Assembly (NCBI GenBank): GCA_001774395.1
Contig: MEZX01000002.1
Location: 302,101-366,100 of the forward strand
Length of the DNA: 64,000 bases
Direction of reading: 5' to 3'
Source: Candidatus Berkelbacteria bacterium RIFCSPLOWO2_01_FULL_50_28
GTDB lineage: Bacteria; Patescibacteriota; UBA1384; 2-12-FULL-50-11
The notes beneath the pieces are model-generated. The model was not told the origin of the DNA. It was given only the letters and a program-made list of their open reading frames with translations, and made no database searches. Position 1 is the first letter of the stretch. Every line of letters starts with the position of its first letter. Of this stretch, positions 13,157 through 47,892 are shown piece after piece. A program made the position numbers and the translations under genes.

Positions 13157-16100
13157 TCAAAAGGTTCCCGTCAATATATACAGCACCTCGGTTGTGTAAG
13201 GGTTGGCTTCTTGAAGCTCGCTAACGGAGACTTTGTGCGTAATGGTAAACGCTTCGTTGGTAACTGGGCCGCTCGTGCCGTCAACGGCCGTCGTGTGATC
13301 GGCGACAATATCCCCGAATTCAGTCAATCTCAAAGGCGCATAAAGCGTGCCGCCGCTAAAAATGTTGACGCCTTGAATTGTCGTGTCGTCGGAGGTGTAG
13401 CCGTAACCGCAATTGGTGCTCGGGGTACAAGTGCCACCTGGCCAAGCCCCGGGGGAAGCGTACGAGCCGCCCTCAAACATCGGGATGGTTTTAATGCCCT
13501 TGGTTAGGAGTGAGCTGGCGTACTGGCGGATAACATAACCGCCATAAGCATTAGTGCTGGAGGTCAGAGTAAGAGTCTTGGAGTCGGTTCGGTTATTACC
13601 GTTGTTAAGATTTGCAAAAGTTATCGTGACAGCGCCGAGCGACAAGCTAATCGTTGGTAGAACCGATTGGCCGTTGGAGGAAGTGACGCCCGAAGTGTTA
13701 GTAGCGTTATCAACCGCTCGGACATTGAAGAAGTAATTCTGGTTGGTTCGCAATATTAAACTAGTTGAGGTGACCGATTCGGTTGTTGAATTATCGGTCC
13801 AGGTTTTAATATCGGTCCCACCGGCTGTGGTACCAATTGAATATTGATACTTATTTAGTCCCGAGGCATCGCAGGTGTAAGCATCCCAGTTAGCCGAGAC
13901 GGAAGTGAGGGAGCCGTCATTATACGATGCGTCAACATCCTCAACCGTGCCGTCGTAAATGCTAGAACCGTAAGTGCAAGCGGTGGTGTCGACACCAAAA
14001 TCCCGATCAGCCGGGTTGGTTGGTGGGTTTTCAGTGTTACCGCCGTAACCGGTCCAGCTGGAGTAGGCCGTGGCGGCGTCTTTCACCTGGGCTTGCCAGT
14101 GATATTGGGTACCATCAACCAAACCGCTAATAGTTACGGTTACCGTGACTGGCGTACCAGTGTAGGCAACTCCCGAACCGCATAAGTCCCCGCCGTCAAC
14201 TGAAGATAGGGCAGTAGCGACGGGATCTTTTTCAACACAAAGATAGAGTGTGTCAGCGGCGTCAGGGTCGGAAGCCAGAGCGGTAAATTTGACTGAAGCT
14301 TCGTTGGTCCAATCGCCAGTAGCTAAGACTGTATCGTCGGTTTTCATTTGAACTAAACTTGATGGGGCAATTGGTGCGCTTGTCCAGTGCAGGAAACCGA
14401 GAGTATCGCTGCCACCGTCACCAGTGTCGGAATCGGACGCCTCGCAGGATGCCCAGCCGGTACAAGTGGCCGGATAGAGAACCCAGTAGTTACCAGCGGC
14501 CGGAGCCCCAGTGGCGATTTGAGTGACGGAGTATTCTGGCACATTGTCTGAAGCTTCGAGGAAGATCATGTTGTCCCAGGTCTTGGCTGGAGCACCGGTC
14601 CCGATTAACGATCCGTGAACCTTCATATATGTATCGGTGGCTCCAACATTCTGGAAGTTGTCGAACTGACCGTCATCAAGATTAGTGAGGGTTGCTCCAC
14701 TTTGAAGATCCAGGCCGGTACCGCCGCTGGTGCCACCGAGGTAACTGAATTTGTAGTACTGGGCGTCGATGGTTCCCGCCACATCGAAGTGATATCCACC
14801 ACTAGCGCCACGAGTAACAGTAGAGAGATTTGTCGAAGTAGTTTGACCCTTCATCTCCAGGGTTTTGCCACTGCCAACCGTGAAGATGTCACCGTCTTGC
14901 ATCATCGTCATCGGTTTGATGACTGAAGTAGAGTTGTCAGCATCAAAGGCGGTAAAGGTGTAAGTGGCATTCAAGGCATACGGAGTGGCGCCGCAATCAA
15001 CAGTGAATTTGGTGTTAACAGCCCCGGTACTGTCGGTAAACAGAGTGCCCGTTGTTAGGTCACCAACATCGGTACCGTTGCGGTAAACATCCATTACCGC
15101 TTGGCTTGTTACACAACTAGCGCCGACGCCAGCGGTTTTGGTGACGAGTTTGTAAGCGTACGGGCCTCCAGACAGATCGGCCGGAGCGGACAGGTCGTAA
15201 GCGAGGTTAGTGTCTTCGGTGCCGGTCCCAGAATACCCGTGAGCGGTAACAGATTTCTCCCAAAGATTATTGGCGTAGTTAAACTTGTCAGTCGATTCCA
15301 CTTGCGGACTCTCGGCCGTATCGGCCGGAATGGCATATTCGCCCCAAATCTTCGTTGCGCCAGCCGAGGTGTCGTGCTTACGGGAGACGATGTACGCCCC
15401 AGCGACAGTCACCCCAGTCACTTCGGTGGAGGAAGAGAGGGTAGTGTTGTAGAGCGAGAGGGTGTGAGCGCCAGCACCAGCGAAAAGAACATCTGCCGAG
15501 GTGTTAGGAGCAGTGCCGTAAACATCACTAATCACCACATTGCCGGTGGCGGTGGTATTATCAACAGCTAAGCCATACGACTGCCCACCACTCTGATTGC
15601 CGGTAAAAGTGTTGTTGGAGACGCCGTAAATAAGGATGCCGTAGGTACCGTTGTCATTGGTGGTGTTGGAAGTGAAGGTATTTCTGCTAGCGCTGGTAGT
15701 AAGTGCGATACCATATGTCCCGTTACCGGTAACGGTATTAGATGTAAAGGAGTTATTAGTGACATTGTTGACATTGAAACCGTAGCCACTATTACCAAGG
15801 GCGGAGTTAGAAGTGAAGGTGTTGCTGTTGGCGCTGTTTTGCGTTAAAAAGCCACCGCTAGCATTACCAATAGCGGAGTTGGAAGTGAGGGTGTTATTGG
15901 TACTGGAGGAGAGGAGGTAGAAGCCGTAACTAGTATTACCGGTGGAGACATTGGAAGTCAGGGTGTTATTGGCAGAGCTGGCGTTGAAATAGAAACCATA
16001 GCCAGCGTTACCGGTGGTAGTGTTGGAAGTGAAGGTGTTGCTGTTGGCGGTGGAATTGAGGAAGAAGCCACTTGCAAGGTTACTGCTGACTGCGTTAGAG

Positions 16101-31100: not shown

Positions 31101-34100
31101 TTAGTAACAACGGTTGCTTCTTCAAGTACAAAGGCGTCGTCGGCGTTAATTTCAAGGTCGTAATACGAACCAGAGGTAGATTGGATGGTGGTATTGCCGG
31201 CGCCGTTAGCACCGGTGTAATAAAACTTCGATGTTCCGCCTGCCAGAACGCCGAGCGGAGAGGCTAGCAGTTGGAACGGATCGCCGGCAGTGCCACTCAA
31301 TGTCCAAATGCGATTACCGGCGTTGAGAGTTGTTGTTGCGCCAGCGGCGTCACCACTTTTACCAACCCTCAAGATACTACTAACGGTTATCCCCCCGCTT
31401 CCGCCAGTTTGGGTGGTGATCACAAATGGGGAGGATCCGTGAGAGTTAGAGAAAGTTAGCTCGTAAAAAGTCCAGGCATTTGAGCCAGACGATGTGCCAA
31501 AGTTTTTATTCGCCGCCACCCTGTTTTCAAAGGTACCACCTGTTAGAGTAATTATCCCTGCGGTACCTGCCGCAGTACCGTTAACGGTAACATTCTGGGT
31601 GCCGAGCAAAGTTCCGGCGGTCATGGTTAGATCGTTAACTACTTCGACGGCGGCGTTCGGCGTCCATTCGCCACTGGAACCGTTGAAGATTAAATTATTG
31701 AATTTACCGGTCGAACCGCTAAGCGTGCCTTGAATCGTGTTGCCGGTATCGGTGGCATTAAAGGTGACGGTGCCTGAATTGTGAGTAAATGTACCGGAAT
31801 TGGAATAGTTACCGCCAACAGTCAGGGCACCGCTAGTACTGGTAAGCTTGGCGCTGGCACTAATGGTTAGATCGCCCTGGGCATTAATAGTCGGGTTGTG
31901 TGTTGAACCGATACCGTGACCATCAACGGTTAGAGTGCCAGTGGCAGTAATGGTTTGGCTACTACCGGTGCCGATCGGGGTTTGAGAGAGACCGAGGCGA
32001 ACTTTTATAACTTTCCCAGGAGTGGTAAGCGTTCCGAAATAAGCCAAACCATTCGGTTGGTCGATTACGGCACTTATTGCACCCAATTCACCGCTATCAA
32101 ACGTGATCGCTCCGACGCGCGTAAAATCACTTAACTGGACTTTTACGACTCTGCCAGCGGTTTGACTTAGATCGTCGTAGGTTCCGAAGTAGGTCAGACC
32201 GTTAGGTTGGTCGATTACAGCGGAGTAAACCCTACTTTCCCCGGCACTGAAGGTTATCGCTCCGACGCGCGTAAAATCACTTAACTGGACTTTTACGACT
32301 ATGCCAGTGGTAGTAGCAGTGCCGAAGTAAGCAAAGCCGTTCGGCTGGTCTATAACTGCGCCAAATTGGAGATTATCTTCCCCGGCACTGAAGGTTATCG
32401 CTCCGACGCGCGTAAAATCACTTAACTGGACTTTTACGACTCTGCCAGCGGTTGTGTAGGTTCCAAAATAAGCGAAGCCGTTCGGCTGATCGATGACGGC
32501 GCTACGAATGCTGTTCTCACCAGTGTCGAGGGTTATGGCTCCAACGCGAGTAAAATTACTCAAGTTTATCTTTACTATTTTCGCGGGACTATCGTTAGTG
32601 CCGAAGTAGATAAAACCATTGGGCTGGTCAATGACACCTGGGGCGTAAATACTGCCCTCACCAGAGTTAAGAATAATTGATCCGACTCGCGTAAAGTCGC
32701 TTAAACGATACTTTATGATTCGTGAGGGGCTGTCGTTGGTGGCGTAGTAGGCGAAGCCATTAGGCTGGTCGATAACGGCGCCGAAATTATTGGTTTCACC
32801 GCTATTATTATTCAGCCCAGCAGCCCGAGCTAGGCCGTTGTTACCGCCGATTTTTAGTTGATTGTAATTAATGGACGGCGCTACAGCCCCTTCACCGGCG
32901 TAAACTACTGTTGATGTATCAGCCTGGAAAGTACCCTTGCTGGTTACATTTAACGGTGTAGTTGAGGGCGATCCAGATAAAGTGAGCGTGGTACTGCTGG
33001 CGGCAAAAGTATCGCTGACACTGGAAGAAGCGTTGCCGATTGTTAATTTCTGTTGAACGGTCGAGTTACCAACGGCCGTAAAGGTGGTAGCGTTACCGTC
33101 AGCGTTATTGCCAACAAGCAAGTTGTAATAAGTGGCGGCGGTAACATTTGTCGCACTGGTGCCGGCGTAGGAAACAGATGAGGTGCTGGGAGTGAAGGTA
33201 CCTGTCACAGTAAGCGGCGTCCCGCTGGCGGTTAAGGTGACGATTGAGCTACCGGCCGTCAGAGTACCGCCAGTAACAATGTTTAAGTTACCAGTGGATA
33301 GGTTGTAATTAGTCCAACCTGGAGCCAAAACCAGATTAGCGGTGTTGCTAGTAGTCCTGGTTATAGTTGTAGTTTTTCCAGATGCGACCGTTAAATTACC
33401 ACTGACATTGGCCGTCAAAACCGACGATCCCGAAGCAATAGTAGGATTGATCGTTAGATCACCGTTAACTGTTAGGCCAGGCGAGGCGGCATGATCAGTC
33501 CAGGTAATTAAATCAGTAGATTCCCAAACAACAGCGTCAGCAACCTGGTTGGTGGCGTCATGTCTTCCCCCAACAACATATTTTGCGCCATCATAGATTA
33601 TTGAATATGCCCATTGTTGTTCTACTCCAGCGGAAACGATCCGTGGCGTCCAGGTAATTAAATCAGTCGATTCCCAAGCAAAAGCATCCAAGGTCCCCAT
33701 AATATTGTCATAGCCTGTGGCAACGTATTTAGAACCTCCATAGATAACTGAATATAAAACCTGACCGCTCGTACCAGAAGCGACAGTTCGTGGTGTCCAG
33801 GTAATCAAGTCACTTGATTCCCAGACCAGACCGTCGCCGCTTCCAACACCTAAATCGTACCCAGCGACAACATATTTTGCGCCGTCGTAGATAATAGACA
33901 GTATATCTTCGGACCCTGCGCTATTTGCGACAGTCCGTCGCGTCCAGGAAATCAAGTCGGTCGATTCCCAAATATAAGCGTCGCAATTACCGAATCCACA
34001 AAAACCAGGAGTGACGGAGCTATCAGTACCGGCGGCAACGTACTTAGATCCGCCATAGGTGAAGGCATTTATTACTTGATGATTCGCGCCATTTGCGACA

Positions 34101-37100
34101 GTTCGTGGCGTCCAGGAAATCAAGTCGGTTGACTCCCAAACGACAGCGTCGTTAGTTCCAGAGGCGTCATCATTTCCTGCGACGATGTATTTTGAACCTG
34201 TGTAGATGATCGAAACTAGATTTTGACCTCCGGCGCCAGAAGCGACAGTTCGTGGTGTCCAGGAAATTAAATCCGTCGATTCCCAAACATAAGCGTCGTA
34301 AGTTCCAGAGGCAGCGTCCCCACCAGCAGCGACATATTTTGTGCCATCGTAGATCAGGGAAGATATAGTCTGGTTACCTGTGCCACCGGCCACGGTTCGC
34401 GGTGTCCACGAAACCAAGTCAGTCGATTCCCAAATAACAGCGTCAAAAGTCCCGGAGGCGTCGTCAAATCCCATGGCAATGTATTTGGAGTTTGCGTACA
34501 CAAATGAATTCACTCTCTGATTAGATGAACCGAGAGTATAGGTTCGGTTGGCAGTCAGAGTAGGCGTAATCTGGAGGTTACCGTAAACTGGTGCCTGAGA
34601 AACGGTTTGGGCAACATCAGAAAGATAACGCGTAGTCGAGGCGGAATTGAAAGCGTAGGTCTGGAAAGTAGGCATATTTCGAGTAGTAGTTTGAGTGGCA
34701 CCGGAATTGCAGGTGGCGTTAGTTGAGCCAGTTGTACCGCCAAGACAAAGCGTTGCGCCCGAAGCGATTGTTAGAGTACCGTTGGTCGCACCCGGACCGG
34801 TGATATTATTAGCATCAACATTGAAAACTCCAGCAGTGATAGTTAGGGCAGCTCCGGAAACATTATTTATCGTAACTGCCCCGCTCATATTAATAACGGT
34901 AGCGGTCGAATTGATTGTTAATTTATGAAAAGTGGTGGCGCCGGAAAGGAAAGTCGGTGTTCCGGAAGCGCTAGTAACTTTTACTTCTGATGTACCAACG
35001 GTGAAAGTACCAGCGCGAGTGAATAATGTACCAGAGATGCTCGTGAGGGTGATAACTGAAGACGCACTGGCGGCGTCAAGTGTTCCACCGGTAGCAATAT
35101 TAAGTCGACCGGTTGTGAGATTATAATCGGTTGAGCTTGGACGTACATCGATCTTAGAAGTGGCGGTGCCGGTTCGGGTGATAGTGGTCGCTTTAGTTGC
35201 GGCGACCGTGATATTGGCGCCCATGTTAACCGTTAGTAACTGGGTCCCGCTGGGCGAGATAGTAAAATTCCCGTTTATAGTTAGGGCGCTAGTACCGAAG
35301 GTGTATGTTCGCCCCGAAGTGGAAATGGCTGGGCTCAAAGTGAGGTTATAAAAAGTAATTGGGTTGTTGGAGGTGATTCCTCCAGAGGCATCTTTGTTCA
35401 TAACGACCGTTGAGGTGCCGGCATTAAAAGTACCAGTTTGAGTCCAGGAGCTTGCTGTTGAAGTGATAGTGGAGTTATTAGCAGTTAGCGTTCCTCCCGA
35501 TCCTGTGTTATCTATGTCCATCGTTCCAACCGATAGTGCGTAACTATTAGAGGCAGTTGTATTAACAACTGAAGCTCCGGTGCCGGTGCCAGTGATAGTT
35601 AAGGTTCTATTGGCCGCAATAGTAGTGGTACCGCCCAAATTGACGGTGAGAGTTTTAGTTGTCGAGCTGGCGGTGGGGTTAACTTGCATGCCACCGTTGA
35701 CGGTCAATGTACCGGTAGTGAGGGTGTAGGTTCGGTCGGCGGTGATAGTTGGAGTAATATAGAGGTCGGTGTAAGTGGTGTGTTGAATATCAGCAGTGCC
35801 ATCGCCGCTAAATACGGTCGTCGCCGGTGAAGTGAAGGTGCCTCCATCAATGTAAAGCGGTCGAGCGGTACCAGTGCCTGACTCATTTAGTGTTAGAGTT
35901 GCCGAGAAATCTCCGGGGATGCCTGTATAGGTACCCTTGATATGGAGCTTGGGCGTAGTTACTGACCCGCCGGGAGCAAAGGCTTTACTAGTTGGGATGT
36001 GCAGTTCGATACCCGACTCAAGAATCAAAGTGTCAGTGGCGGCATTTTCGGCGTCGTAAAGCATATCGGTATTGTTCTGGTCAGAGTCGTAATCAGTGAG
36101 GTTATCTATGACAATCGAGGAGCCAGTGGTGTAAGTAACTGATACTCGGTTTTCATAGAGATCTATACTGTAGGCGCCGTTGCTCTGAGCGACTAAAACA
36201 GTATTGGCTTTCATCGTTGAAGTCAGATATATCGTGACGCGGTCGCCGGAATTGACGGTTAGGCCGGTGAAGCTGAAAACAGCGGTAGTGTTACTGCAAG
36301 AGGCCGTGTTCTCGGCACCACCGTTGACGCGCAGACTAACATTTGTCGCCGCACCATCGCACGGCCCGCCATTACCGGATGTGCCGATAGTGGTTTCGTT
36401 GGCCATGTAAACCGTACCGGTAATAACGGCGGTAAAGCTCCAATTGGTATTGTTATTACCATCGTAGTTAGTTCCATTACCGGCGCTGATCGTACTACCT
36501 GAGGAAGCGTCTGAGCGTGAAACATTGACATAAGCTACATTGGTTTGAGTGCCGGAAACATTTAAAAGCCACGAACCACTAGCGGCCGAGTTTCTAAAGA
36601 AAATCCTCGTACCAACAGCCGCACCGTTCCAGTTAATATTGGTCATGGTGTAGGTCGAGCCGGTGTTGTATTCGACTCGTACCGATGCGACTGCGATAGT
36701 GTAGTTGTTGGTAACAGTGGCTGAAGCAGCAAAATCTATTCCGGCGACAAAATTTGTTCTTTCATCATCAGTTGCATCAGCCCCAGAAGCGTTAGTCAGA
36801 GTTAAATTGTAAAACGCCGAGGTGGTTGTCATCGTACCGGACAGGGTTTGGGCGGCCGCGCCGTTCAAAGTTACGGTACTGGTGCTAGCGGTGAAAGTGC
36901 CGTTGTTAGTGTAATTTCCCCCGACATTATAAGTAGTAGCACCACCCGAAGTGAGTGTGCCGTTAACTGTTAAGTTTAGGGTGGTTAGAGTTTCACTGCC
37001 ACCAACAGTCAAACTATTACTAGATAAAATGTCTAAGGTTTCGTCGGCATAACTACTAGTGGCATCAACCGAAATAGTGTTAGAGATCGCCTTGTACATA

Positions 37101-40100
37101 ACATCTTCATCAGCATCGTTATCGTATAGAGTCAACTCCGAATAAGTTTTGGTTTGGTTATCGGCCGACCCCACCGAAAAAGTATGGGCGGTCAGCACCA
37201 TGCCCGTGATGTTACCGCTCCCATCGTAGTTGGTAATACCGGTAGACTCGTTGGCGTCACTGGCGCCGTCGTGCCAAACTATCACCACTCGCCCCTTACC
37301 GACAAAAACCGAAGAGATCGTCCAAGCTGAGGAGGCAACCGTGGCGTTTTTATTCACTTGCAAAACCCCATCCACCGCTACGGCGACGGTCGCGGCGTCA
37401 ACCGATGACGACCCAGATATATCGATCGTTGAGCCGATCTCAATCCACTGAATGCTGGCCATGGCAAAATCCCAGACGACTGTTACATCACCGGCCGCAC
37501 TTCCTGGTGTGGTGGGACGAAGACGAAGGTTCATCTTGTTATTGGCGGTATCAATTAGGTCTTCGGGGTTGATCTGCTGGCCGTAGACTGATATCGACAG
37601 ATTGCTTATAGAGTCAGCGTAAGCTAGCGTGGCGGAGTTAGAAGTGGGGTTGAGTTGAAGCCAACCACCAGTGGCCTGGTTGAAGCCGCTATAGTCTTTG
37701 AAACCAAATTGAGCGGTCAGCGCCGTTGCACCACAAGGATTCCCGAAAGCCCCGCAACCGGAAAATCTGGTCGCAAAATGTTGGCCGACAATCGAGCTAT
37801 TAGACGGTTGGGTAACGGGGAAGGAGATATTAGAACTTGCTCCTTCTTCAACGGTGGTGTCAGGTGTCGACTCGTTATCAAGGGCGTAGAAAGCGTTAGC
37901 ATCGCCAGTGCCCATGGTAGTGGACTCATCTTCGGTTTCGACGTCAAAGGTGTTTGGTGAGGCAGGGCCGACTAGATTTCTGGTGTTGGCACAGTCTGAA
38001 GCAGTGCCGGAGCCAAACGAAATCTGGCAGTCGCTACTGTCGGTATTCGTTGAACCGACAACCAGATAGGCAAAGTCGAGCCGAAGAGTAGTGGTGCTGT
38101 TTAGATCGCCGTAAAAGCGAATTCTCGTCTCACCCCCATTAATATAATCGGTGGGTGAGATATTATTCTTTGCCCAGGCGTTGGTGGCATCAGCCGTCGC
38201 ACAGGCAATGGCAGCGGAGTTAAGGTTCTCCCATGATGTTGTTGTAAAGTTATAAATCGCAAATTGGTGATCGAGTCCGGCCGTGGCCGCCGAGCAATTG
38301 TAGTCTGCCTTGAAGTAGAAGGTATTCATACCGGCATATGTTTTGATGTTTTTAAAACTTAAATAGTAGTCGGCAATTGAACCAGCGGTGCCAGCTCCAG
38401 CGAGATAAACACCGTCGGCTGTGGTTGTCGATTGTTGGCCACTAGCCGAGTTACCAACCACGTGAGTATTGGCATAGGTGCCGGCTAGAGCACCGCCACT
38501 ACCATTCAGGTTTGTGACTCCAGCAGGATGGTAAACTGTGTCAATGATTGGCTGAATTCTAAGAAAATCAACATCGATGGCAGTGGCTGTTTGAACGGTA
38601 TTATACAAACGGATCTTAACGCCGTTACTGGCGTGAAAGAAATTTGTTAACGGTGTTGAAATGGCTGTTCCACCGGTGGTTCCAGTCGTAAAGTAGCCAT
38701 CGAAAATTTGCCATTGAAGTGAGATTACGCCATTTGTCGTAAAATCAACGTCAACGTTTGAGGCGTTTTGCGAGTTTACCGAGCGCCAGCCGCCCGTGGT
38801 ACAGTCGCCGTCAGCCGCCACATCGACCGAGGTTGACGAAACCCAGTCGCAGATTTGAACCTTTACTGCCAAAGCGGCATCGGTATCGAACTCAGTTTGA
38901 ATGAGTAATTTATTGGCGCCATTTTGTTTGGCGGAAGTGAAATTTAACTGCATATTGTGATTCGTGCCCACAACATTAGCGCCGTTAATCGACCAGTGGT
39001 AGTTATCATCACCGAGCGTTCCTTGCCAACCACCAGTGTTGACGCCGGTGTTAACGGCGGCGGTTTGACCGAGCCTGGCAATTTCGGTTCCGGCGCCCAG
39101 AGTGTCGCCAGTGGGTGCAAATTGGTAGTTACGAGTTGGATGCGAACTATCTACCACCCAAGAGATGCTGACCATGGCGAAATCCCAGTTGGTGACAGCG
39201 TTATTGCTGGTTAAGCCGGAGGCAGTTGTGCGCAGGCGAACATTCATCACATTATTATTGGTATCGATATGGTCGTCAGGGTTTGTTTGGTTGCCGTATG
39301 TACCGATGGCTAATGCGGTAATCGAATCTGTATAGGCTTGGGTAGCAGTAGCCGACGTAGCACCGACTGCCGTCCAGCCCCCGGTTGCCGCCGTGCTGGT
39401 TGGTGTACCGGAATAATCGCGCAAGCCCATTTGTACCGTCAGGGCAGTGGTGGTGCAGACGCTACAGCCGGAGAATCGTCCAGCATAATGGTTGGCGACC
39501 ACTTGGGCGTCAGAGGGGACTGTCACGGGAAAGTTAATGTTGGCGGCTGTCGCTTCCTCGAGAGTGGCGTCACCGTCATTATCAAGAGCATAATAATCGT
39601 TATTAACAGTGTTAGATTCGTCCTCGGCGGTATTGGCGAAGGCGACTGCCGTAGCTGGTCCAATTAAATCTCGAGCGTTGGTGCAGTCAGTCGCCGTACC
39701 CGTGCCCCAAGTAATCTCACACTGAGCACTATCGGAATTGGTTGAGCCGACCATCAAATAGGCGAAATCTTGACGAAGGGTGACGGTGGAGTTTGCGCTA
39801 CCGTACATCCTGATTCTAACTTCATCACCAGAAGCTTCGTCAATATAATCAGCGGGAGTAATGTTGTTTTTGGACCAGGCATTAGTGGCCGCTGATCCAG
39901 AACAGGCGATAGAAGCAGAGGTTAAGTTCTCCCAAGTTCCGGCGGTAAAATTACGAATAGCATAGTCAAAGTTTATCCCCGTGGTACTGCAGTAGTACTC
40001 AGATTTAAAGTAAAAGGCATTCATACCAGTGTAGGTTTTGACATTCTTGAAGGTTAAGTAAGAATCAGAGATTGACCCAGCGGTGCCGGCAACATCGATC

Positions 40101-41050
40101 GAAACTCCGTCAGCACTCGTCACATTCTGCTGACCGGTGGCGGTATTACCGACGATGTGAGTATTGGCATATATACCAGTGACTGTGCCAACTCCAAGGT
40201 TGGTAAAGCTCGAGGCTTGATATACCGGATCAACCAAGGCATTAGCTCGCAAAAAGTCGACAGCGACATCAGCAGAGCCAACAACATCGCTATCCGACCA
40301 GTAACGAACACGAATTGGTTGGGTATCGCTAGAGGTAAAGTTGGTTAAGGGAGTTGATATGGCCGTTCCGCCGCCAGTACCACTTGAGAAGTAGCCATCA
40401 TATATATGCCACTGGAAAGCGGCTGGACTCGTTAGGGCTATATCGACATCGACGTTGGAAGCATTTTGACTCATCAACGATCGCCAACCACCGCCGGTAC
40501 ACTGGCCGTCCGTGGTCGCATCGACCGAAGTCGACGAAACCCAATCGCAAATTTGAATCTTCAAAACTCGACTAGCCGAATCAAGGTCAACTTCTGTTTG
40601 AATGATGAGTTTATTAGCCCCTGCCAGTTTAGCGATTCCTAAATCAAGCTGCATATTGAGGTTCGGCGTCGCGGCATCGGCCGCTGTTACCTGCCAGTGA
40701 AAGTTGTCGTCGGACAGAGTTCCTTTCCAGGAACCGGTGTTAACGCCTTCGGTGGCTCCTGCCAACAGTGAGTTGGCATTTTGCCCTGTCCCGACTACTA
40801 GATTTCCGGAAGTTGGGACAAACTGATAGGTGCTGGCCAATGCCTTTGGGGGATTTTGGTTAATTGAAGATCTGGGGTTAATAAGCCAACTGGCTGAGCT
40901 GGTTACGGTGAGGAGGATCAAGATCATTAAGATCGGGATTCGGAACGGGTTATTTTTCCAGGTATCCCAAACTAGAGTCACGCTCTGGCGGTAGAGATTA
41001 CGATAGATACCGTCCAGGCGTTTTTTGGCTTTTTCAACCCGCGCGGTCAT
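13157..41050 (-). CDS. giant membrane-anchored modular surface protein (~9,297 aa)
   Basis: Single uninterrupted 27.9-kb ORF. ATG at 41050 is preceded by GGGAG; the track's first 'M' at 41068 is a TTG. N-terminal cytoplasmic motif KKRLDGIYR plus a TM helix. Internal domains listed as separate features. TGA stop at 13157-13159. Confidence 0.7.
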   Translation of the reverse strand: MTARVEKAKKRLDGIYRNLYRQSVTLVWDTWKNNPFRIPILMILILLTVTSSASWLINPRSSINQNPPKALASTYQFVPTSGNLVVGTGQNANSLLAGATEGVNTGSWKGTLSDDNFHWQVTAADAATPNLNMQLDLGIAKLAGANKLIIQTEVDLDSASRVLKIQICDWVSSTSVDATTDGQCTGGGWRSLMSQNASNVDVDIALTSPAAFQWHIYDGYFSSGTGGGTAISTPLTNFTSSDTQPIRVRYWSDSDVVGSADVAVDFLRANALVDPVYQASSFTNLGVGTVTGIYANTHIVGNTATGQQNVTSADGVSIDVAGTAGSISDSYLTFKNVKTYTGMNAFYFKSEYYCSTTGINFDYAIRNFTAGTWENLTSASIACSGSAATNAWSKNNITPADYIDEASGDEVRIRMYGSANSTVTLRQDFAYLMVGSTNSDSAQCEITWGTGTATDCTNARDLIGPATAVAFANTAEDESNTVNNDYYALDNDGDATLEEATAANINFPVTVPSDAQVVANHYAGRFSGCSVCTTTALTVQMGLRDYSGTPTSTAATGGWTAVGATSATATQAYTDSITALAIGTYGNQTNPDDHIDTNNNVMNVRLRTTASGLTSNNAVTNWDFAMVSISWVVDSSHPTRNYQFAPTGDTLGAGTEIARLGQTAAVNTGVNTGGWQGTLGDDNYHWSINGANVVGTNHNMQLNFTSAKQNGANKLLIQTEFDTDAALAVKVQICDWVSSTSVDVAADGDCTTGGWRSVNSQNASNVDVDFTTNGVISLQWQIFDGYFTTGTTGGTAISTPLTNFFHASNGVKIRLYNTVQTATAIDVDFLRIQPIIDTVYHPAGVTNLNGSGGALAGTYANTHVVGNSASGQQSTTTADGVYLAGAGTAGSIADYYLSFKNIKTYAGMNTFYFKADYNCSAATAGLDHQFAIYNFTTTSWENLNSAAIACATADATNAWAKNNISPTDYINGGETRIRFYGDLNSTTTLRLDFAYLVVGSTNTDSSDCQISFGSGTASDCANTRNLVGPASPNTFDVETEDESTTMGTGDANAFYALDNESTPDTTVEEGASSNISFPVTQPSNSSIVGQHFATRFSGCGAFGNPCGATALTAQFGFKDYSGFNQATGGWLQLNPTSNSATLAYADSISNLSISVYGQQINPEDLIDTANNKMNLRLRPTTPGSAAGDVTVVWDFAMASIQWIEIGSTIDISGSSSVDAATVAVAVDGVLQVNKNATVASSAWTISSVFVGKGRVVIVWHDGASDANESTGITNYDGSGNITGMVLTAHTFSVGSADNQTKTYSELTLYDNDADEDVMYKAISNTISVDATSSYADETLDILSSNSLTVGGSETLTTLNLTVNGTLTSGGATTYNVGGNYTNNGTFTASTSTVTLNGAAAQTLSGTMTTTSAFYNLTLTNASGADATDDERTNFVAGIDFAASATVTNNYTIAVASVRVEYNTGSTYTMTNINWNGAAVGTRIFFRNSAASGSWLLNVSGTQTNVAYVNVSRSDASSGSTISAGNGTNYDGNNNTNWSFTAVITGTVYMANETTIGTSGNGGPCDGAATNVSLRVNGGAENTASCSNTTAVFSFTGLTVNSGDRVTIYLTSTMKANTVLVAQSNGAYSIDLYENRVSVTYTTGSSIVIDNLTDYDSDQNNTDMLYDAENAATDTLILESGIELHIPTSKAFAPGGSVTTPKLHIKGTYTGIPGDFSATLTLNESGTGTARPLYIDGGTFTSPATTVFSGDGTADIQHTTYTDLYITPTITADRTYTLTTGTLTVNGGMQVNPTASSTTKTLTVNLGGTTTIAANRTLTITGTGTGASVVNTTASNSYALSVGTMDIDNTGSGGTLTANNSTITSTASSWTQTGTFNAGTSTVVMNKDASGGITSNNPITFYNLTLSPAISTSGRTYTFGTSALTINGNFTISPSGTQLLTVNMGANITVAATKATTITRTGTATSKIDVRPSSTDYNLTTGRLNIATGGTLDAASASSVITLTSISGTLFTRAGTFTVGTSEVKVTSASGTPTFLSGATTFHKLTINSTATVINMSGAVTINNVSGAALTITAGVFNVDANNITGPGATNGTLTIASGATLCLGGTTGSTNATCNSGATQTTTRNMPTFQTYAFNSASTTRYLSDVAQTVSQAPVYGNLQITPTLTANRTYTLGSSNQRVNSFVYANSKYIAMGFDDASGTFDAVIWESTDLVSWTPRTVAGGTGNQTISSLIYDGTKYVAAGGDAASGTYDAYVWESTDLISWTPRTVASGAGGQNLVSIIYTGSKYIVAGNDDASGTNDAVVWESTDLISWTPRTVANGANHQVINAFTYGGSKYVAAGTDSSVTPGFCGFGNCDAYIWESTDLISWTRRTVANSAGSEDILSIIYDGAKYVVAGYDLGVGSGDGLVWESSDLITWTPRTVASGTSGQVLYSVIYGGSKYVATGYDNIMGTLDAFAWESTDLITWTPRIVSAGVEQQWAYSIIYDGAKYVVGGRHDATNQVADAVVWESTDLITWTDHAASPGLTVNGDLTINPTIASGSSVLTANVSGNLTVASGKTTTITRTTSNTANLVLAPGWTNYNLSTGNLNIVTGGTLTAGSSIVTLTASGTPLTVTGTFTPSTSSVSYAGTSATNVTAATYYNLLVGNNADGNATTFTAVGNSTVQQKLTIGNASSSVSDTFAASSTTLTLSGSPSTTPLNVTSKGTFQADTSTVVYAGEGAVAPSINYNQLKIGGNNGLARAAGLNNNSGETNNFGAVIDQPNGFAYYATNDSPSRIIKYRLSDFTRVGSIILNSGEGSIYAPGVIDQPNGFIYFGTNDSPAKIVKINLSNFTRVGAITLDTGENSIRSAVIDQPNGFAYFGTYTTAGRVVKVQLSDFTRVGAITFSAGEDNLQFGAVIDQPNGFAYFGTATTTGIVVKVQLSDFTRVGAITFSAGESRVYSAVIDQPNGLTYFGTYDDLSQTAGRVVKVQLSDFTRVGAITFDSGELGAISAVIDQPNGLAYFGTLTTPGKVIKVRLGLSQTPIGTGSSQTITATGTLTVDGHGIGSTHNPTINAQGDLTISASAKLTSTSGALTVGGNYSNSGTFTHNSGTVTFNATDTGNTIQGTLSGSTGKFNNLIFNGSSGEWTPNAAVEVVNDLTMTAGTLLGTQNVTVNGTAAGTAGIITLTGGTFENRVAANKNFGTSSGSNAWTFYELTFSNSHGSSPFVITTQTGGSGGITVSSILRVGKSGDAAGATTTLNAGNRIWTLSGTAGDPFQLLASPLGVLAGGTSKFYYTGANGAGNTTIQSTSGSYYDLEINADDAFVLEEATVVTNNLTITLGTLDVTAGNFALTIGNNYSNAGGTFTAQSGTVTFNATDTGNTLAGTMTGGSAFFNLVFDGVAGGWTYSNAVAATNDFTVINGAVTANNLALTVTRDFTLANTSGVSYTAGSSTITVSRHFTNNGDKFVEGTSTVNMTGTGTLASASGFYNLGVAYTGFVTTSSGINGGNSTTNQLALNGGTMTYGASYVNTGCTGTCTPIVFNSATTINGGGVFYFWPVGASAIMTIPAGDYGNWSMNFAFTNNNQTYTQTGATITSQWWSFGTYAYTGGVYNTNGNTVTATAGISLGARGSTGSATVNFGASTVNSGSFLITSAGAGLESWTLNLESSTLNFTTNVDFTASAHAQIAVLDGGSSTVNFNSNSTRTYTPAGFSLYNGNIAAGANSLTLGGAAIFTNNFTITSGTFDVSAAPYALTIGGNYSNSGTFTARTGTVTLNGSATQTLSGTMTTTSAFYNLTLTNSSGTSPSDNERTGWVAGIDFNAAATVTNNYVITTANVRVEYESAATYTVANINWNGAAIGTRIYFRNSAITGTWLLNVSGIQIAVSYVNVSRSDASSGSAIVASDGTNFNAQNNTNWTFSGTVTGTVYGTDESTAVVSGPTVRMYINGTTTETTTANGSGVFTFTTGTNANDVLSIYLDTAGGITGSTVTKATGSALSNIHIYQDRLTTRCDNTCSLTNTNIDSWDKGNDTDIHATVTTSNLVVDNDWKLKVTNNTFAPGGTITTSPAGGSSYQGQVGIDASSVLDMAGFALSIGGNYSNSGTFTSGSNTTSFTDTATGNTLAGTMTGASSFYNLVFDGVAGGWTYSSAVAATNDFTVTNGAVTANNLALTVTRDFTLANTSGVSYIAGSSTLTVSRHFTDTGYKYAYGTSTLILNGTGTLTALNNSSLFYNISLAYTTFTSTVASQIRVSNTFTVNGGTLTKSGSVWINLQCSGSCTPMVFAAPTAMTGGGTFYQQAGGTTPTKTIAAGDYGNWNLNTTSYTNSATYQLGGTVTTTGTFRLDSNNTGLVFNTQNYTLNVGAFTFGSAGWLLQNTTANFGSSTINVTGNFYADASAGNHTVNLNTSTVNVGGNWQNLNGTGSLILSPGTSTVNMTATTTGKTITSNGQSFYNLVFNGVGGGWTFQDATIATNDFTVTNGAVTANNLALTVTRDFTLANTAGVSYTAGSSTITVSRHWNDTGTKFVYGTSTVALNGTGTIAVAAAASFNHLSVGYSTFTTTFPSGSGGWQMMGQLTFNGGTVTNGGGGTWFHIRVNGTNNTPVVFASPTTITGINSIGINSNSAGPYTVTVAGGNYGSWGINLYGANTGVTFQLGGNLTTSFYFRQANSSGGDSIFNTQNYNITSPTYQFGQTGSSCLSTAANWGSSTITLSGTGDGLYVESNCGAHTLNMGSANIDVKGNVKFVNGTGTIAVTASTSTLTWTNTSGTKTYSPNGQLLYNITLNGSGGTVTPDAAVIVANDLTMTAGTLNGTQNVTVNGAVAGTAGIISLTGGTFEQRVGAAKNFGTTSGSAAWTFYDLTFSNSHGSSPFTVTTQTGGTGGITVSDILKVGKSGDSAGATTTLDAGNRTWTLSGTGGDPFQILASPLGVLTGATSTFKYTGNNAGGNTTIQSTSGSYYNLEINDGLQGYWKMDEGTGTNAVDVSGNGNDGTLGGATGGLPTWTTSVSSNNHYGGSGSDPYGVTLDGNDDKMEKSSYSGFPTTVISAAFWIKTSDTSNGMISYASSGSDNAFLLFDSNNITVYINGSSRATGVDINDNAWHHVVVTWRSSDGQLDVYKDGVSGYSNTFAASAVILGGGCLEIGQEQDSVCGGLDAGQATAGSFNDVRIYNRLLSSTEASALAAGNHPTYETYVLEADTTVTNNLGVRTGALDVTASNFALTVGGNLTNVSNFAPNSGTVTMNSTASGKTIQSDPAFYKLKFHNASGGGGWTSQNRLLVDTTSGTPAADALVIGNGTVTIGDGNADNLLVYGGIDIAVNANETGILQTMDALAEGSTITLQVNKDTSTQCANCIVDVGASSGSGQGTLTINENGILKLIPKSSATASDTGVEVASTGKLNVTGALSLAATTSTAITDYDNRETKLCATADFSAGYTSKHVRATTGLAIGQIYPITATTVNDAQCDTATDDSITRADTSTASVVSASRTLSLNNTIMAVCIPDSITANDQKIGSYMRDFTGTKGYFQIVDSANDSASCTGTDDLLKVIESPDVFSGFTSGDTVDISDGVRPGDQFEIYDYANVTAEDGVACTAAVNEAGESYIYAIAGSEIAMTYADICNLGRNTFSKNGVSLYTLNGTNANEGITIDRSRLRNGYDGAYLSATTNNNTGNSKGITNSSATGNADYGFRLISGANSNTLTSNTASNNTLYGIRLDSSNSNILTSNTANNNTQRGINLTTSSNNTLTSNSAVGNISKGILIETSSYNNTLTSNTAIGNVDVGIQLINAYNNTLTSNSAIANSSDGIILVSASNNYLSSNSSTSNTDEGFFIYLSSNNNTFKSNTATNNTNYGFRLYDGSNNNILTSNQSGGQSRGLAVEGTVSTGNVVIDDVYGTSPNTVADIVFGNVGAHTLSLYNTTLSSSTEVTGVTLAASYIVSRKHDGVAGSTKIWGEYAIPSDTAETPQDEDTDKFNYANNLWEKSVTAHRYSGTGTEDTNLSYDLTAPADLSAGPYAYRLVTKTAGVGASCVTSQAVMDVYRNGTDVGDLTTGTLFTDSTGAVNTKFTVDCGATPYALNATYTFTAFDADNSTSTATKTVTVQQDGDIITVPSGGTMQFDGGVSNRSTLAVLTPASMSFDLTNSGTISGGYNDLTVTGSVNGSNGTYSMTTGSILIQRVIAASKTFGNSGAGSNGWTLQDLKFENASGATKTVTTNGTNTGSIITSGTLTIGKATDSFSTTLDNETNDRIIDADGDVTITGFGVLQASSTASFTIGSSYINDGTLTAGTGTVTFDSTSTGKTLGGQGIYNTPFYNLTFNGVGGAWELGNDGPMFISNDLTITNGTVTSSFYGLKIGGSYSNSGTFTHNSASVIMSATDTGNTLGGTMTGASAFYDLTFDGVAGDWSFGANAVTFANDLTITNGTVTAPSTTLTIGGNYSNSGTFTANSGTVTLDGSATQTLSGTMTTTSAFYNLTLTNSSGTSPSDNERTGWVAGIDFNASATVTNNYVITTANVRVEYNSGSTYTIANINWNGAAIGTRIYFRNSAITGTWLLNVSGIQTAVSYVNVSRSDASSGSAIVASDGTNFNAQNNTNWTFSGTVTGTVYGTDETTAVATGPTVRMYINGTTTETAVANGSGVFTFTTGANANDVLSIYLDTAGGIGGLTVTKATGSALSNIHIYQSRLTTRCDNTCSLTNANIDNWDKGNDTDIHATVTTSNLVVDSDWKLKVTNNTFAPGGTITTSPAGGSSYQGQVGIDASSVLDMAGNALSIGGNYSNSGTFTSGSNTTTFTDTATGNTLAGTMTGASSFYNLVFDGVAGGWTYSNAVAATNDYTVTNGAVTANNLALTVTRDFTLANTSGVSYTAGSSTITVSRHWTDSGAKFVSGTSTVALNGTGTMAFAYLLFYNLSIGYSGFTTTLPNTTFGITSGGTMTVNGGTVAGGGNFVVIHCVATCTPFVFASPTSLTGTMTVYYEADAGSFNMTIAGGNYGSWQVSTNSNTNNTAYILGGDLTTTSSFRLRAPNSGTGNTFSTQNYAINAANFTFGYVATGAFAASFGSSVITLTSDLQVASNGGTHTLNMQTSTVDVKGNVTFVNGTGTIAVTPGTSTLTMSAVATGKTITSNAQSFYNLVFNGVGGGWTLQDAMSVTNNFSITNGTFDTNTTFNYALTIGGNLTGNAGTWTLTERASTITVSGNWDTSAVATDSTSIVEGTSTVVMNGTGTKTLKTGATSTWLARFYNLNVGQSGNTTQLLSNTGMNGTISLGTGTFDLNTFSMQIDSLITTPFSLNPAGTWGTSSGTLYVFNDSNPTTNYNLPAFTYNSSVQTNQSTGSKTTFQGTTIINGNLSIGCCSRASEFDLSGQTVTVSGNVTFNTTTAILTMGAATLNVGGNFTNVAGAVFTANTSTVNFTSTTTGKTITSAGDSFYNLTFNGSGGAWTPQDALVATNDLTMTAGTLSGTQNVTVNGSVAGTAGIISLTGGTFEQRVIADKNFGTTSGSTAWTFSDLTFSNSCTSICNPQNTVTTQTGATGGITVSGVLRVGKSGDTYITVLNAGNRTWTLSGTAGDPFQILASPLGVLTGATSTFKYTGNNAGGNTTIQSTSGSYYNLEVNDGLVGYWKMDEGTGTSTTADISGTGATGTLYNSPTWTTAVNNNNYYGGSGSDPYGLDFSVASSQYIQGSYNAALNPSAFTISAWARVEGGAGTWRSVITSRDSTPAGYIIYAGSDNKWQFWTGAGTWKVVTGPTITDNVWYHLIATYDGVNMYLFVDGTSYGPTASTLTQNTVRDLRIGAGATEGSPNYYFEGKIDDVRVYNRVLGTTERTDMDAGNHPTYETYVLEADTTVTNNLGVRTGSLDVTASNYALTVGGNLTNVSNFAPNSGTVTMNSTASGKTIQSDPAFYKLKFHNASGGGGWTSQNRLLVDTTSGTPAADALVIGNGTVTIGDGSADNLLVYGGIDIAVNANETGILQTMDALAEGSTITLQVNKDTSTQCANCIVDVGASSGSGQGTLTINENGILKLIPKSSATASDTGVEVASTGKLNVIGALSLAATTSTAITDYDIRETKICANATFTTDQYNSLNVRATSGLAIGQIYPITDTTVDDAQCDTSTHDSITRADTSTASVVSASKAISVGNTIMTVCIPDSITADNQKIGSYMRDFTGTKGYFQITDSVNDYAGCSGTNDYLKVIASPDAFSGFTAGDTVDISDGVRPGDQFEIYDYANVTAEDGVACTATANEAGESYIRAIAGSETAMNYADVCNLGRNATSKYGVQFDTVNGTNASEGVTIDRSRLRSNYYGTYLNGATNNNTGNSKGITNSSSTSNLSYGFQLLNSANSNTFTSNAVSSNLASGFFLNSTANSNTFTSNTTTGNAGYGFYFNASSANNTLTSNVSTGNTSYGFYLLSSSTNNTLTSNSAIGNASGGFLTQNSANSNTFTSNSALGNSGYGFNVNNVTNNSFTSNTVTGNGTYGIALTTSASRNTFTSNTTNDNGTYGILIYGVSNNTFTGNQSGGQSYGLAVDNTTATGNVVISDVYGTAPNTSADVLFAGAGAHTLSLYNTTLSSSTEVTGVTVAGAYIVSRKHDTSAGATKIWGEYAIPADTAESPQVESTDKFNYANNLWEKSVTAHGYSGTGTEDTNLAYDLSAPADLSGGPYAYKLVTKTAGVGASCVTSQAVMDVYRNGTDVGDLTTGTLFTDSTGAVNTKFTVDCGATPYALNATYTFTAFDADNSTSVIKPMTMMQDGDIFTVGSGKTLEMKGQTTSTNLSTVTRGASGGYHFDVAGTIDAQYYKFSYLGGTSGGTGLDLQSGATLTNLDDGQFDNFQNVGATDTYMKVHGSLIGTGAPAKTWDNMIFLEASDNVPEYSVTQIATGAPAAGNYWVLYPATCTGWASCEASDSDTGDGGSDTLGFLHWTSAPIAPSSLVQMKTDDTVLATGDWTNEASVKFTALASDPDAADTLYLCVEKDPVATALSSVDGGDLCGSGVAYTGTPVTVTVTISGLVDGTQYHWQAQVKDAATAYSSWTGYGGNTENPPTNPADRDFGVDTTACTYGSSIYDGTVEDVDASYNDGSLTSVSANWDAYTCDASGLNKYQYSIGTTAGGTDIKTWTDNSTTESVTSTSLILRTNQNYFFNVRAVDNATNTSGVTSSNGQSVLPTISLSLGAVTITFANLNNGNNRTDSKTLTLTSSTNAYGGYVIRQYASSLLTKGIKTIPMFEGGSYASPGAWPGGTCTPSTNCGYGYTSDDTTIQGVNIFSGGTLYAPLRLTEFGDIVADHTTAVDGTSGPVTNEAFTITHKVSVSELQEANPYTTEVLYILTGTF
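13160..13700 (-). other. C-terminal ~180-aa domain shared by both giant proteins and the three ~400-aa secreted proteins; ends YILTGTF
   Basis: Shared pattern W..G.C....GYGY..DDTT ... RL ... Y....Y(I/V).T(G/A)TF at the extreme C-terminus of 5 proteins. Confidence 0.5.
15580..16275 (-). other. parallel beta-helix (PbH1/NosD-like) repeat array, copy 2
   Basis: GVTIDRSRLRSNYYG followed by ~10 TSNxxxGN(A/T)xYGFxL repeats. Confidence 0.6.
17660..18290 (-). other. LamG-like jelly-roll domain, copy 2
   Basis: GLVGYWKMDEGTGT...ISAWARV...WYHLIATYDGVNMYLFVDG...DDVRVYNRVL. Confidence 0.65.
23490..24190 (-). other. right-handed parallel beta-helix (PbH1/NosD-like) repeat array, copy 1
   Basis: About 10 consecutive 22-aa repeats of the form TSNTAxxNTxYGIxL, beginning GITIDRSRLRNGYDG. 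Confidence 0.6.
25600..26215 (-). other. LamG-like (concanavalin A-like lectin/glucanase) jelly-roll domain, copy 1
   Basis: Signature GLQGYWKMDEGTGTNAVDVSGNGNDGTL ... FWIK ... WHHVVVTW ... LDVYKDG ... NDVRIYNRLL. Matches the Laminin_G_3 pattern. Confidence 0.65.
31990..32810 (-). other. second propeller-like array: 7 repeats of ~41-47 aa (AVIDQPNGFAYFGT...VVKVQLSDFTRVGAITF)
   Basis: Highly regular protein repeats. DNA copies include 45-bp perfectly identical cores. Confidence 0.5.
32105..32440. repeat. tandem DNA repeat, 3 perfect 45-bp cores (ATCGCTCCGACGCGCGTAAAATCACTTAACTGGACTTTTACGACT) at 140-150 bp period
   Basis: Cores start at 32105, 32255 and 32395. Coding, inside the giant gene. 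Confidence 0.85.
33460..34520 (-). other. propeller-like array of ~9 repeats of ~47 aa (consensus WESTDLISWTPRTV...KYVAAG.D.ASG)
   Basis: Read directly from the translated repeats. Reminiscent of BNR/Ycf48-type beta-propeller blades. Confidence 0.45.
37400..40835 (-). other. two tandem ~570-aa N-terminal modules of the giant protein (internal duplication)
   Basis: Protein blocks YQFVPTSGN...ICDWVSSTSVD...GGWRS... recur as YQFAPTGDT...ICDWVSSTSVD...GGWRS. Corresponding DNA is ~75% identical. Confidence 0.6.
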
Positions 41051-42038: not shown

Positions 42039-42410
42039 TCAACGACGGTTTTTGAGAGTAAGAACGCTTGCACCAAGGATATTTGCAATTTCTTTGAGTT
42101 CAATTGCTAAAGATGCGATTTGTTCCTTGTATTCCACGGTAGTTTGATCGATGATAATTAACCAGTAGTCTGTCTCGTTGGCTGACTTGAGGGCGATTTG
42201 AAAAAAGCGAAGATAATCCCGCCTTGAGCTTGAAGACTTTGCTTCGTGAACGTTGGCTCCTATCGAAGTAGCGCTCCGTAGTAGTTGGTCGGCAATCGAT
42301 CGAAGATATGGCTTCCGGTTAATCAACTCACATAACTTTACAGTTCTAACGGAAAAAGCAATCAATCTCTTATAAAACTGCTCTTTAAATTTTTGTTTAT
42401 CATTTTCCAT
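42039..42410 (-). CDS. four-helix-bundle protein (TIGR02436 / 23S rRNA intervening-sequence protein family, Avd-like)
   Basis: 123 aa with LLRSATSIGANVHEA...RRDYLRFFQIALKSANETDYWL, the hallmark motif of this family. Confidence 0.75.
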   Translation of the reverse strand: MENDKQKFKEQFYKRLIAFSVRTVKLCELINRKPYLRSIADQLLRSATSIGANVHEAKSSSSRRDYLRFFQIALKSANETDYWLIIIDQTTVEYKEQIASLAIELKEIANILGASVLTLKNRR

Positions 42411-45182: not shown

Positions 45183-45186
45183 GTCT

Positions 45187-46350: not shown

Positions 46351-46431
46351 TAGAGCGACCTGATTTAACAATGATTTTATTTTTCCCCCTCGCACATACT
46401 ATATATACATTGAAGCGTATCCAACAGATGT

Positions 46432-46705: not shown

Positions 46706-46738
46706 AAGTTGATTGTAGCAACTTGCGACGGTTGAATA

Positions 46739-46758
46739 GTGCGGGGTCAACCCCACAC
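46739..46758 (-). promoter_or_regulatory. GTGYGGGGTTGACCCCGCAC palindromic copy of the motif, upstream of the GIY-YIG gene
   Basis: Near-perfect inverted repeat GTGTGGGG-TTGA-CCCCGCAC in the coding-strand view. Confidence 0.4.
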
Positions 46759-46770
46759 TAATTTTTCCGA

Positions 46771-47721: not shown

Positions 47722-47892
47722 TTTTCGTTCTGGCGAACTCAAAATCATTGAATTTTCAATCATCAAATTTTAATTTATCGGTTTTACCACATTCTGTCAT
47801 TTGAAATTCAATCGAAATTTGAAATTCGCCTCTCGACTCCGCTCGAGGCGACCTGAGCACCGTCGAATGGTCGAAATTTGAAATTACTTTTC

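Follow-up and report, generated by a model that had tools for sequence, protein, structure and literature searches.

A giant gene of Candidatus Berkelbacteria encodes a putative pilus adhesin with a Pam-pilin-type C-terminal domain

In a 64,000-nucleotide stretch of the genome of Candidatus Berkelbacteria bacterium RIFCSPLOWO2_01_FULL_50_28 (contig MEZX01000002.1, positions 302,101 to 366,100; hereafter the window, to which all coordinates refer) we analysed a single 27.9-kb gene, g1, encoding a protein of 9,297 amino acids (aa). The evidence taken as a whole leans towards g1 being a giant subunit that serves a Pam-type pilus as surface adhesin. Its C-terminal domain (CTD) is homologous to the C-domain family of Pam pilins and has a pilin-like predicted fold; g1 is a divergent giant member of this wider family and lies in a pam-like operon.

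Pam pili are donor-strand-exchange, chaperone-dependent but usher-free pili of bacteria in the candidate phyla radiation (CPR), described by Troman et al. (bioRxiv 10.64898/2026.03.03.709456), who used cryo-EM to solve thin filaments from Ca. Mycosynbacter amalyticus, a parasite belonging to the CPR. In that system PamA/B/E are the polymerising pilins, with a nine-strand N-terminal domain and a donor linker before the CTD; PamT has the C-terminal domain without the linker and is the proposed tip; PamC and PamD are PapD/FimC-like chaperones with a C-terminal transmembrane (TM) helix; and PamR is a TM-anchored two-domain FnIII/RbmA-like terminator with an N-terminal donor strand.

The C-terminal domain and its operon

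The genes that carry the argument follow one another on the minus strand with gaps of 10, 1 and -1 nt:

13157..41050, minus strand: g1, giant coding sequence (ATG at 41050, stop codon at 13157-13159; 9,297 aa)
13160..13669, minus strand: CTD of g1 (aa ~9128-9297), a divergent Pam-pilin-type Ig-like domain and putative acceptor
11974..13146, minus strand: 390-aa Pam-pilin-like gene, with signal peptide, N-terminal domain, linker motif GTLALEVIADNDVTVNATVDPS and CTD
11004..11972, minus strand: 322-aa membrane-anchored chaperone-like gene (PamC/D-like, WxLIP/DUF916-like), with signal peptide, two beta-sandwich domains and C-terminal TM helix
10168..11004, minus strand: 278-aa secreted Ig-like (Big_1/Invasin_D3) protein, with signal peptide, C-terminal TM helix and charged tail

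The last ~170 aa of g1 are common to a second giant of the window, g2, and to three small secreted window proteins of 390, 402 and 417 aa. All five CTDs share the terminal motif Y-[IV]-x-T-[GA]-T-[FY]; g1 ends in YILTGTF, just as a preliminary description made from the sequence alone had read it. No Pfam annotation falls on any of the five. Searched against 1.84 billion proteins, a profile of the CTD matched 5,396 representative clusters at E<=1e-3; among the matches listed, which come from proteins of ~170 to 3,641 aa, the end of the domain coincides almost always with the end of the protein.

The family assignment comes from NCBIfam release 20, whose model NF058581 (CPR_Pam_pilin_C) matches g1, g2 and two of the small open reading frames (ORFs) over nearly the full profile, g1 with 20.7-20.9 bits (E 3e-4) and g2 with 29.6 bits (E 6e-7). 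For comparison we scanned species-representative genomes with the giant-type CTD subfamily, which gave 66 related loci. Here the six-frame ORFs were profile-searched on their last 260 aa each; a whole-ORF hmmsearch had missed the giants, probably through the bias correction of HMMER. In these loci NF058581 matches 44 of the 57 neighbouring pilins (best E 5e-42) and, weakly, 43 of 57 big-protein C-termini (best E 2e-8), while the PamT model NF058579 matches 7 of 57 pilin-type neighbours. In structure predictions (AlphaFold2 monomers, the alignment built from database sequences, with modest fold scores) the modelled CTD folds like donor-strand-exchange pilins and matches the pilin domains of FimH, PapG, CsuE and CfaE.

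The segment directly in front of the CTD separates two groups of proteins. The linker G-x-[IL]-A-[VL]-x-[IV]-[IV]-x-D-[DN]-[QD]-V is found there in 72 pilin-type proteins (in the 390-aa pilin the linker peptide is GTLALEVIADNDVTVNA), whereas 56 big proteins, g1 included, carry YYFNVRAxDNAGN..SSNGQxVxP where the pilins have it. In g1 itself the Fn3-like end motif YFFNVRAVDNATN...SSNGQSV takes the place of the pilin linker strand. Because both the pilin N-terminal domain and the linker strand are missing, g1 is not a polymerising pilin of the PamA/B/E kind; for the same reasons, and because it scores below the thresholds of NF058581 and NF058579, it is not filed as a Pam pilin or as PamT.

Two other assignments were tried and rejected. 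With the Pfam WxL model PF13731 the five CTDs give no match at E<=10, nor do they contain the two Trp-x-Leu motifs, the corresponding positions reading GY.V and Y..T.TF. Likewise, the mature N-termini of the big proteins (STTYELQSGEF..., or ASTYQFVPTSG in g1) were considered as PamT-like, but at E<=10 the PamT model gave no match to the N-termini of eight big proteins, g1 and g2 among them.

The chaperone-like proteins are predicted to have two-domain PapD/WxLIP-like folds followed by a C-terminal TM helix. The 278-aa protein is a candidate PamR-like membrane anchor or terminator; its ORF is kept right after the chaperone in seven related loci (L007-L011, L017, L037). Among the neighbouring window ORFs of at least 150 aa that were scanned, none matched an usher family.

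g1 is a real, selected gene

The reading frame of g1 is uninterrupted from 13157 to 41068 on the minus strand (9,303 codons when counted from a TTG at 41068), with a likely start at ATG 41050, where a Shine-Dalgarno sequence (GGGAG) lies ~11 nt upstream. As stop codons are expected at a frequency of ~3/64, a frame of this length cannot have arisen by chance. This agrees with the single ~9,300-aa ORF without internal stops reported in the preliminary description, which had left the strand unstated. Its ranking of g1 among the largest bacterial genes was overstated, since reports exist of predicted proteins as long as 85,804 aa, with many longer than 10,000 aa. The protein is enriched in Thr, Gly, Ser, Ala and Asn. 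In the deposited annotation the locus tags A3A71_01470 (the pilin) and A3A71_01520 (the second giant) leave room for nine genes between them, a spacing which implies that g1 is already deposited as one hypothetical gene.

Given that g1 comes from a short-read metagenome assembly and contains internal repeats, the assembler could in principle have collapsed or expanded these into a chimera, or the ORF could be without function. We consider this highly improbable. The longest exact DNA repeat inside g1 measures 102 bp, and its duplicated arms are merely 75-84% identical. Both ends of the gene recur in other assemblies: window positions 1974-23146 are 100% identical to NCBI contig MEZU01000012.1 (164 kb) and positions 37893-64000 to three ENA MEGAHIT contigs, these being independent assemblies that may share related Rifle groundwater samples and hence are not necessarily independent samples. 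The middle of g1 (23147-37892, 14.7 kb) gave no match in two exact-pattern scans of metagenome contigs, which would fit an artefact, as would a difference in length: the gene call on one ENA contig gives g1 9,250 aa instead of 9,297 aa, a shortfall of exactly one unit of a 47-aa repeat array at 32051-32812. Exact DNA repeats of 57-64 bp sit in this array, so that its copy number may truly vary or may reflect assembler ambiguity; the exact repeat count within g1 is accordingly unconfirmed.

Selection argues against an artefact or a dead gene, too. Between the duplicated arms Ka/Ks is 0.08-0.19 at a dS of 0.7-1.7, from which it follows that the duplication is old and that both copies are under purifying selection. 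A partial orthologue in the metagenome-assembled genome (MAG) of another species (locus L007) is 95% identical in the CTD and 70-79% in the passenger, the part of the protein that precedes the CTD, and keeps the duplicated layout. Together with the absence of any stop across 27.9 kb, this largely answers the concern about an assembly chimera that the preliminary description had raised, and g1 is a real, selected gene.

Anatomy of the passenger

The internal repeats of g1 were mapped by BLASTP self-comparison with masked chunks, together with domain searches. The passenger contains the following elements:

37442..40828, minus strand: tandem pair of N-terminal modules of ~565 aa each (aa 75-632 and 642-1203), from self-comparison
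33491..34546, minus strand: blade-like array of 49 aa x ~7 (aa 2169-2520), from repeat analysis
32051..32812, minus strand: blade-like array of 47 aa x ~6 (aa 2747-3000), with possible one-unit length variation between assemblies
22673..29953, minus strand: super-module copy 1 (aa 3700-6126), with LamG/pentraxin at 25529-26032 and NosD/beta-helix at 23711-24283
14756..21919, minus strand: super-module copy 2 (aa 6378-8765), with LamG at 17669-18106 and beta-helix at 15548-16402

Most of the modular picture drawn earlier from the sequence holds. The two tandem modules, then put at ~570 aa, are 52-55% identical to each other and have no match in Pfam, NCBIfam or PDB sequences; in the PDB sequence search the first 4,650 aa of g1 as a whole found nothing. 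The two propeller-like repeat arrays are real, with unit lengths of 49 and 47 aa. Pfam places the two expected LamG-like domains at aa ~5007-5175 and 7649-7794 (LamG/pentraxin), the first of which also matches neuronal pentraxin-1 in PDB (E 1e-17), and the two NosD-type arrays at aa ~5590-5780 and ~8217-8501 (NosD/Beta_helix), one of the arrays also matching the beta-helix of the AlgG epimerase. The domain annotation proposed earlier thus recovered LamG/pentraxin and NosD/right-handed beta-helix domains, but Pfam covers just ~7% of g1.

Two earlier estimates need correction. The large duplication carrying LamG and beta-helix, first described as an ~8-kb segment with 85-90% DNA identity, exists but extends further and is more diverged: a ~2,400-aa super-module is duplicated in tandem, in copies of ~7.2 kb each with a period of about 7.9-8.0 kb. 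Their amino-acid identity ranges from 55 to 90% depending on the segment; at the DNA level identity is 75.0% over the intervals first compared (14924-17650 versus 22844-25561) and 84.0% in the best arm (20432-21829 versus 28442-29839). The 'hundreds' of GNYSNSGTF/FYNL repeats shrink to 5 and 13 occurrences of the two motifs, and most of g1 is without short-period repeat.

The N-terminus

40886..41026, minus strand: KKRLDGIYR (aa 9-17) and hydrophobic segment (aa ~36-55), together probably an extended Sec signal peptide (without cleavage, a signal anchor)

The N-terminus had been described as a cytoplasmic motif followed by one TM helix. Both KKRLDGIYR and a single hydrophobic segment are present, but they more likely form an extended Sec signal peptide that would be cleaved, because the motif is rare among related big proteins and the rest of these have ordinary signal peptides. 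The pattern K-R-[LFI]-D-[GT]-[ILV]-[YF]-[RQ] occurs ~20-30 residues ahead of the hydrophobic segment in ~10 of the 49 big proteins with the CTD. By its appearance it could be an N-region that extends the signal peptide specifically for very large substrates, an idea similar to that of the YSIRK or ESPR signals. In the window the basic motif lies at 41000-41026 (g1) and 60940-60963 (g2), both on the minus strand, and it is also present in big ORFs of nine related loci (L008, L009, L012, L015, L017, L037, L051, L067 and L069).

If the segment were an uncleaved signal anchor, g1 could instead be an N-terminally anchored stalk, a free-standing fibre whose CTD would serve as distal cap or homotypic interaction domain. 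Such an arrangement would suit the single strongly hydrophobic segment which, in the two giants as in ~10 related big proteins, comes behind a conserved basic motif. We nevertheless regard it as unlikely: the signal peptides of most related big proteins are of an ordinary, cleavable-looking kind and have A-x-A-type ends, pilins use the same CTD on the base-proximal side of each subunit, and the coupling to pilin and chaperone in one operon would be left unexplained.

Related loci in other genomes

The related loci belong mostly to Saccharibacteria, Berkelbacteria, Woesebacteria, WWE3 and Levyibacteriota (Patescibacteria). Roughly 40 of the 66 show a cassette in the order big CTD protein, chaperone-like protein, pilin-like protein (~355-400 aa) and chaperone-like protein, often followed by a protein with signal peptide and TM segment. 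Promoter and terminator scans around the cassettes stayed near shuffle expectation. The big proteins measure 742-3,128 aa where complete, and four more reach the limit of the flank at 3,500 aa or above. With this, g1 is more than twice as long as the longest of the other big CTD proteins compared, some of which are bounded by the flank, and long repetitive ones are under-recovered. A protein-database search with the big-type CTD profile returned proteins of at most 389 aa throughout.

In four loci (L065, L068, L070 and L071) the first slot holds a small protein of ~350-375 aa. These small first-slot proteins combine an N-terminus resembling PamT (NF058579 positions 5-82, E 1e-8 to 1e-12) with an Fn3-like domain and a CTD of the big type; the big-type profile scores them at 158-172 bits, versus 32-42 bits for the second-slot pilins. 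Sequence comparison suggests that the giants may have arisen by expansion of a PamT-like tip subunit.

Nine cassettes (L014, L018, L019, L021, L025, L028, L040, L068 and L070) lie on contigs with non-CPR labels, namely Pseudomonadales, Acidimicrobiales, Clostridia, Bathyarchaeia, Bdellovibrionales, Gammaproteobacteria and Methylomirabilota. Mis-binning or mislabelling of MAG contigs is the probable cause, true transfer being the alternative.

A model for display of g1

The preliminary description had suggested an adhesin or fibre from the lectin-like and beta-helix content. The lectin-type domains, beta-helices, propeller-like arrays, export signal and adjacent appendage genes all go with this idea, which had however missed the pilin-type CTD and the Pam-like operon. 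Including these, we envisage the following course of events. g1 would be exported by Sec via its extended N-terminal signal peptide. The ~9,100-aa passenger, built of beta-rich modules, propeller-like arrays, LamG/pentraxin domains and NosD-type beta-helices, would act as a binding and reach module, while the last ~170 aa, whose homology and fold class point to a pilin-type Ig-like domain, would serve as acceptor. By analogy with the Pam and WxL models, the adjacent membrane-anchored PapD/WxLIP-like chaperone would first fill the CTD by strand complementation, and the linker strand of a pilin would later replace the chaperone strand. Because g1 has a putative acceptor domain and lacks the donor strand of the pilin linker, it could cap nothing but the distal end, in a position that would correspond to that of FimH and PapG on chaperone-usher pili. 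The pilus would then grow beneath g1, and a TM-anchored terminator, a candidate being the 278-aa ORF, would in the end fasten it to the membrane. As a result the fibre tip would show a very long multi-lectin adhesin to a host cell, at its surface glycans or its envelope, with the lectin-type, beta-helix and propeller-like modules as the parts that would bind structures on the host surface.

The strand that completes the CTD could also come from the membrane-anchored chaperone instead of a pilin. Firmicute WxL clusters consist of a small WxL protein, a large WxL protein and WxLIP (DUF916-DUF3324-TM) (PMC10599100; PDB 9i1y), and the WxL sandwich has a gap which a strand of WxLIP is predicted to fill (Hassan, Chaudhuri & Williamson 2023, PMC10599100). 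Transferred to g1, a WxLIP-like strand would complete its CTD without any pilus and the adhesin would be held non-covalently on the cell surface; g1 would be the 'large WxL protein', its CTD possibly binding the cell wall, and the small CTD proteins would be its 'small WxL' partners. The three-part composition of the cluster matches, as does the predicted role of the WxLIP strand. Against it stand the silence of the Pfam WxL model on the CTD (E<=10) and the lack of Trp-x-Leu; moreover, the small neighbours carry a linker strand and match the Pam pilin model, the prototypes of which form the cryo-EM filaments. We therefore judge display of the WxL type the less probable arrangement, though a more serious contender than an N-terminally anchored stalk. 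The two readings, pilus tip and WxL-type display, differ solely in the final strand that fills the CTD groove of g1.

Several observations count against g1 as a Pam-type tip adhesin. Both giants stay well below the membership cutoff of NF058581 (g1 at ~21 versus 55 bits), and the PamT model NF058579 matches none of the 57 big CTDs, g1 and g2 included. Strand acceptance by the CTD and the tip position are predictions. The sequence just before the CTD of g2 differs, which makes the presence of a linker there ambiguous. An uncleaved N-terminal segment would tether g1 at its N-terminus, a poor fit to a pilus tip. Lastly, the Pam preprint is unreviewed and takes its assembly order from AlphaFold models (10.64898/2026.03.03.709456).

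The second giant and its surroundings

Upstream of g1 the window holds the second giant with its own set of small genes:

47893..60981, minus strand: g2, 4,362-aa paralogue with RLDGIFR N-region motif, shared passenger modules, Hint-like domain and the same type of CTD
46771..47766, minus strand: 331-aa chaperone-like gene directly after g2
43995..46395, minus strand: two pilin-like genes (402-aa ORF at 45187-46395, 417-aa ORF at 43995-45248), both ending in DYITTGTF
42517..43491, minus strand: 324-aa chaperone-like gene

The two giants share several passenger modules (45-71% identity) as well as the C-terminal ~165 aa. g2 additionally contains a mini Hint/intein-like domain at aa ~3858-3984 (49033-49413; Pfam Hint_2, E 1e-6, with a weak Intein_splicing match), which is absent from g1. 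It starts with S-FLAGTQVLTPTG and ends in YLVHN followed by Ala, i.e. without a +1 nucleophile, so that cleavage-only autoprocessing is suggested; judged by its sequence, the domain could separate the passenger from a C-terminal part of ~378 aa that comprises a module and the CTD.

Further small genes lie between the giants on the minus strand: a GIY-YIG nuclease (108 aa, 46448-46774), a NYN-domain protein (220 aa, 41175-41837) and two 23S_rRNA_IVP four-helix-bundle proteins (131 aa, 43491-43886; 123 aa, 42039-42410). These interrupting genes are of types typical of mobile or selfish elements, and related cassettes elsewhere are compact and without them. Around the pilus cluster, which forms no obvious island, lie core genes (RF, rpsB, tsf, frr, rseP, proS, tpiA, pgk, tig). 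Among these, a 150-aa EF-Ts (2315-2767, plus strand) and a 407-aa prolyl-tRNA synthetase (4645-5868, plus strand) are compact, as is typical of reduced CPR genomes.

Implications

What is new here is the link between a deposited hypothetical gene and the Pam system described in 2026, and with it a class of big-to-giant first-slot subunits. Pam pili are thought to be used by such bacteria for contact with host cells, and large-to-giant lectin/beta-helix proteins that end in a putative pilin acceptor domain, as the first cassette gene in dozens of Patescibacteria genomes, are candidates for the host-binding tip. The two giants occupy 41 kb, compared with 629 kb for the longest contig, a very large investment for a reduced genome. 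Through the CTD alone, thousands of unannotated CPR proteins (the 5,396 representative clusters) become annotatable.

More tentatively, CPR Pam pili and Firmicute WxL/WxLIP may be two branches of one ancient usher-free, single-membrane display system that works by strand complementation with a membrane-anchored chaperone, and in which CPR bacteria enlarged the first-slot (tip) subunit to giant adhesins of modular build, with lengths up to 9,297 aa. Such adhesins would then be the actual host-recognition devices of CPR episymbionts and would evolve fast by module duplication; we offer this as a conjecture. The Pam and WxLIP literatures, without mutual citation in the papers considered here, become connected: the WxLIP paper (PMC10599100) predates Pam, and adhesins, large or giant CTD-bearing subunits and WxLIP go unmentioned in the Pam preprint (10.64898/2026.03.03.709456).

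Comparison with known systems

In size and build g1 resembles the giant genes of Omnitrophota and others (30,000-85,804 aa), which are implicated in cell-wall degradation (West-Roberts et al., 10.1101/2023.11.21.568195): it is very large, repetitive, secreted and multi-domain, and belongs to a bacterium that is uncultivated and for which interaction with other cells is presumed. Unlike g1, giants of the Omnitrophota type are unconnected to a pilin domain, and g1 is large for CPR but no record.

The g1 locus and the Firmicute WxL clusters have the same three-part composition, with a WxLIP-like TM-anchored protein adjacent. They differ in that Trp-x-Leu and PF13731 are absent and that the organism is a CPR bacterium, not a Firmicute; in addition, the small partners of g1 carry the donor linker, and polymerisation has been shown for their family.

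Closest is the Pam system itself. As there, the locus lies in a CPR lineage and is usher-free, has an Ig-like C-domain detectable by NF058581, two-domain linker pilins next door and PapD-like chaperones with a TM helix, and ends in a TM-anchored Ig-like protein. By contrast, g1 is ~25-40x longer than PamT or the pilins, has no pilin N-terminal domain or linker, falls well below the curated cutoffs and leaves the PamT model silent; the one trait it has in common with PamT is a CTD that lacks the linker.

Compared with chaperone-usher pili, no usher was found in the scanned neighbours of g1, and the chaperones are TM-anchored rather than soluble and periplasmic. Yet g1 would share the basic design of the tip adhesins FimH, PapG, CsuE and CfaE, an adhesin module placed N-terminal to a pilin domain that accepts a strand but does not donate one.

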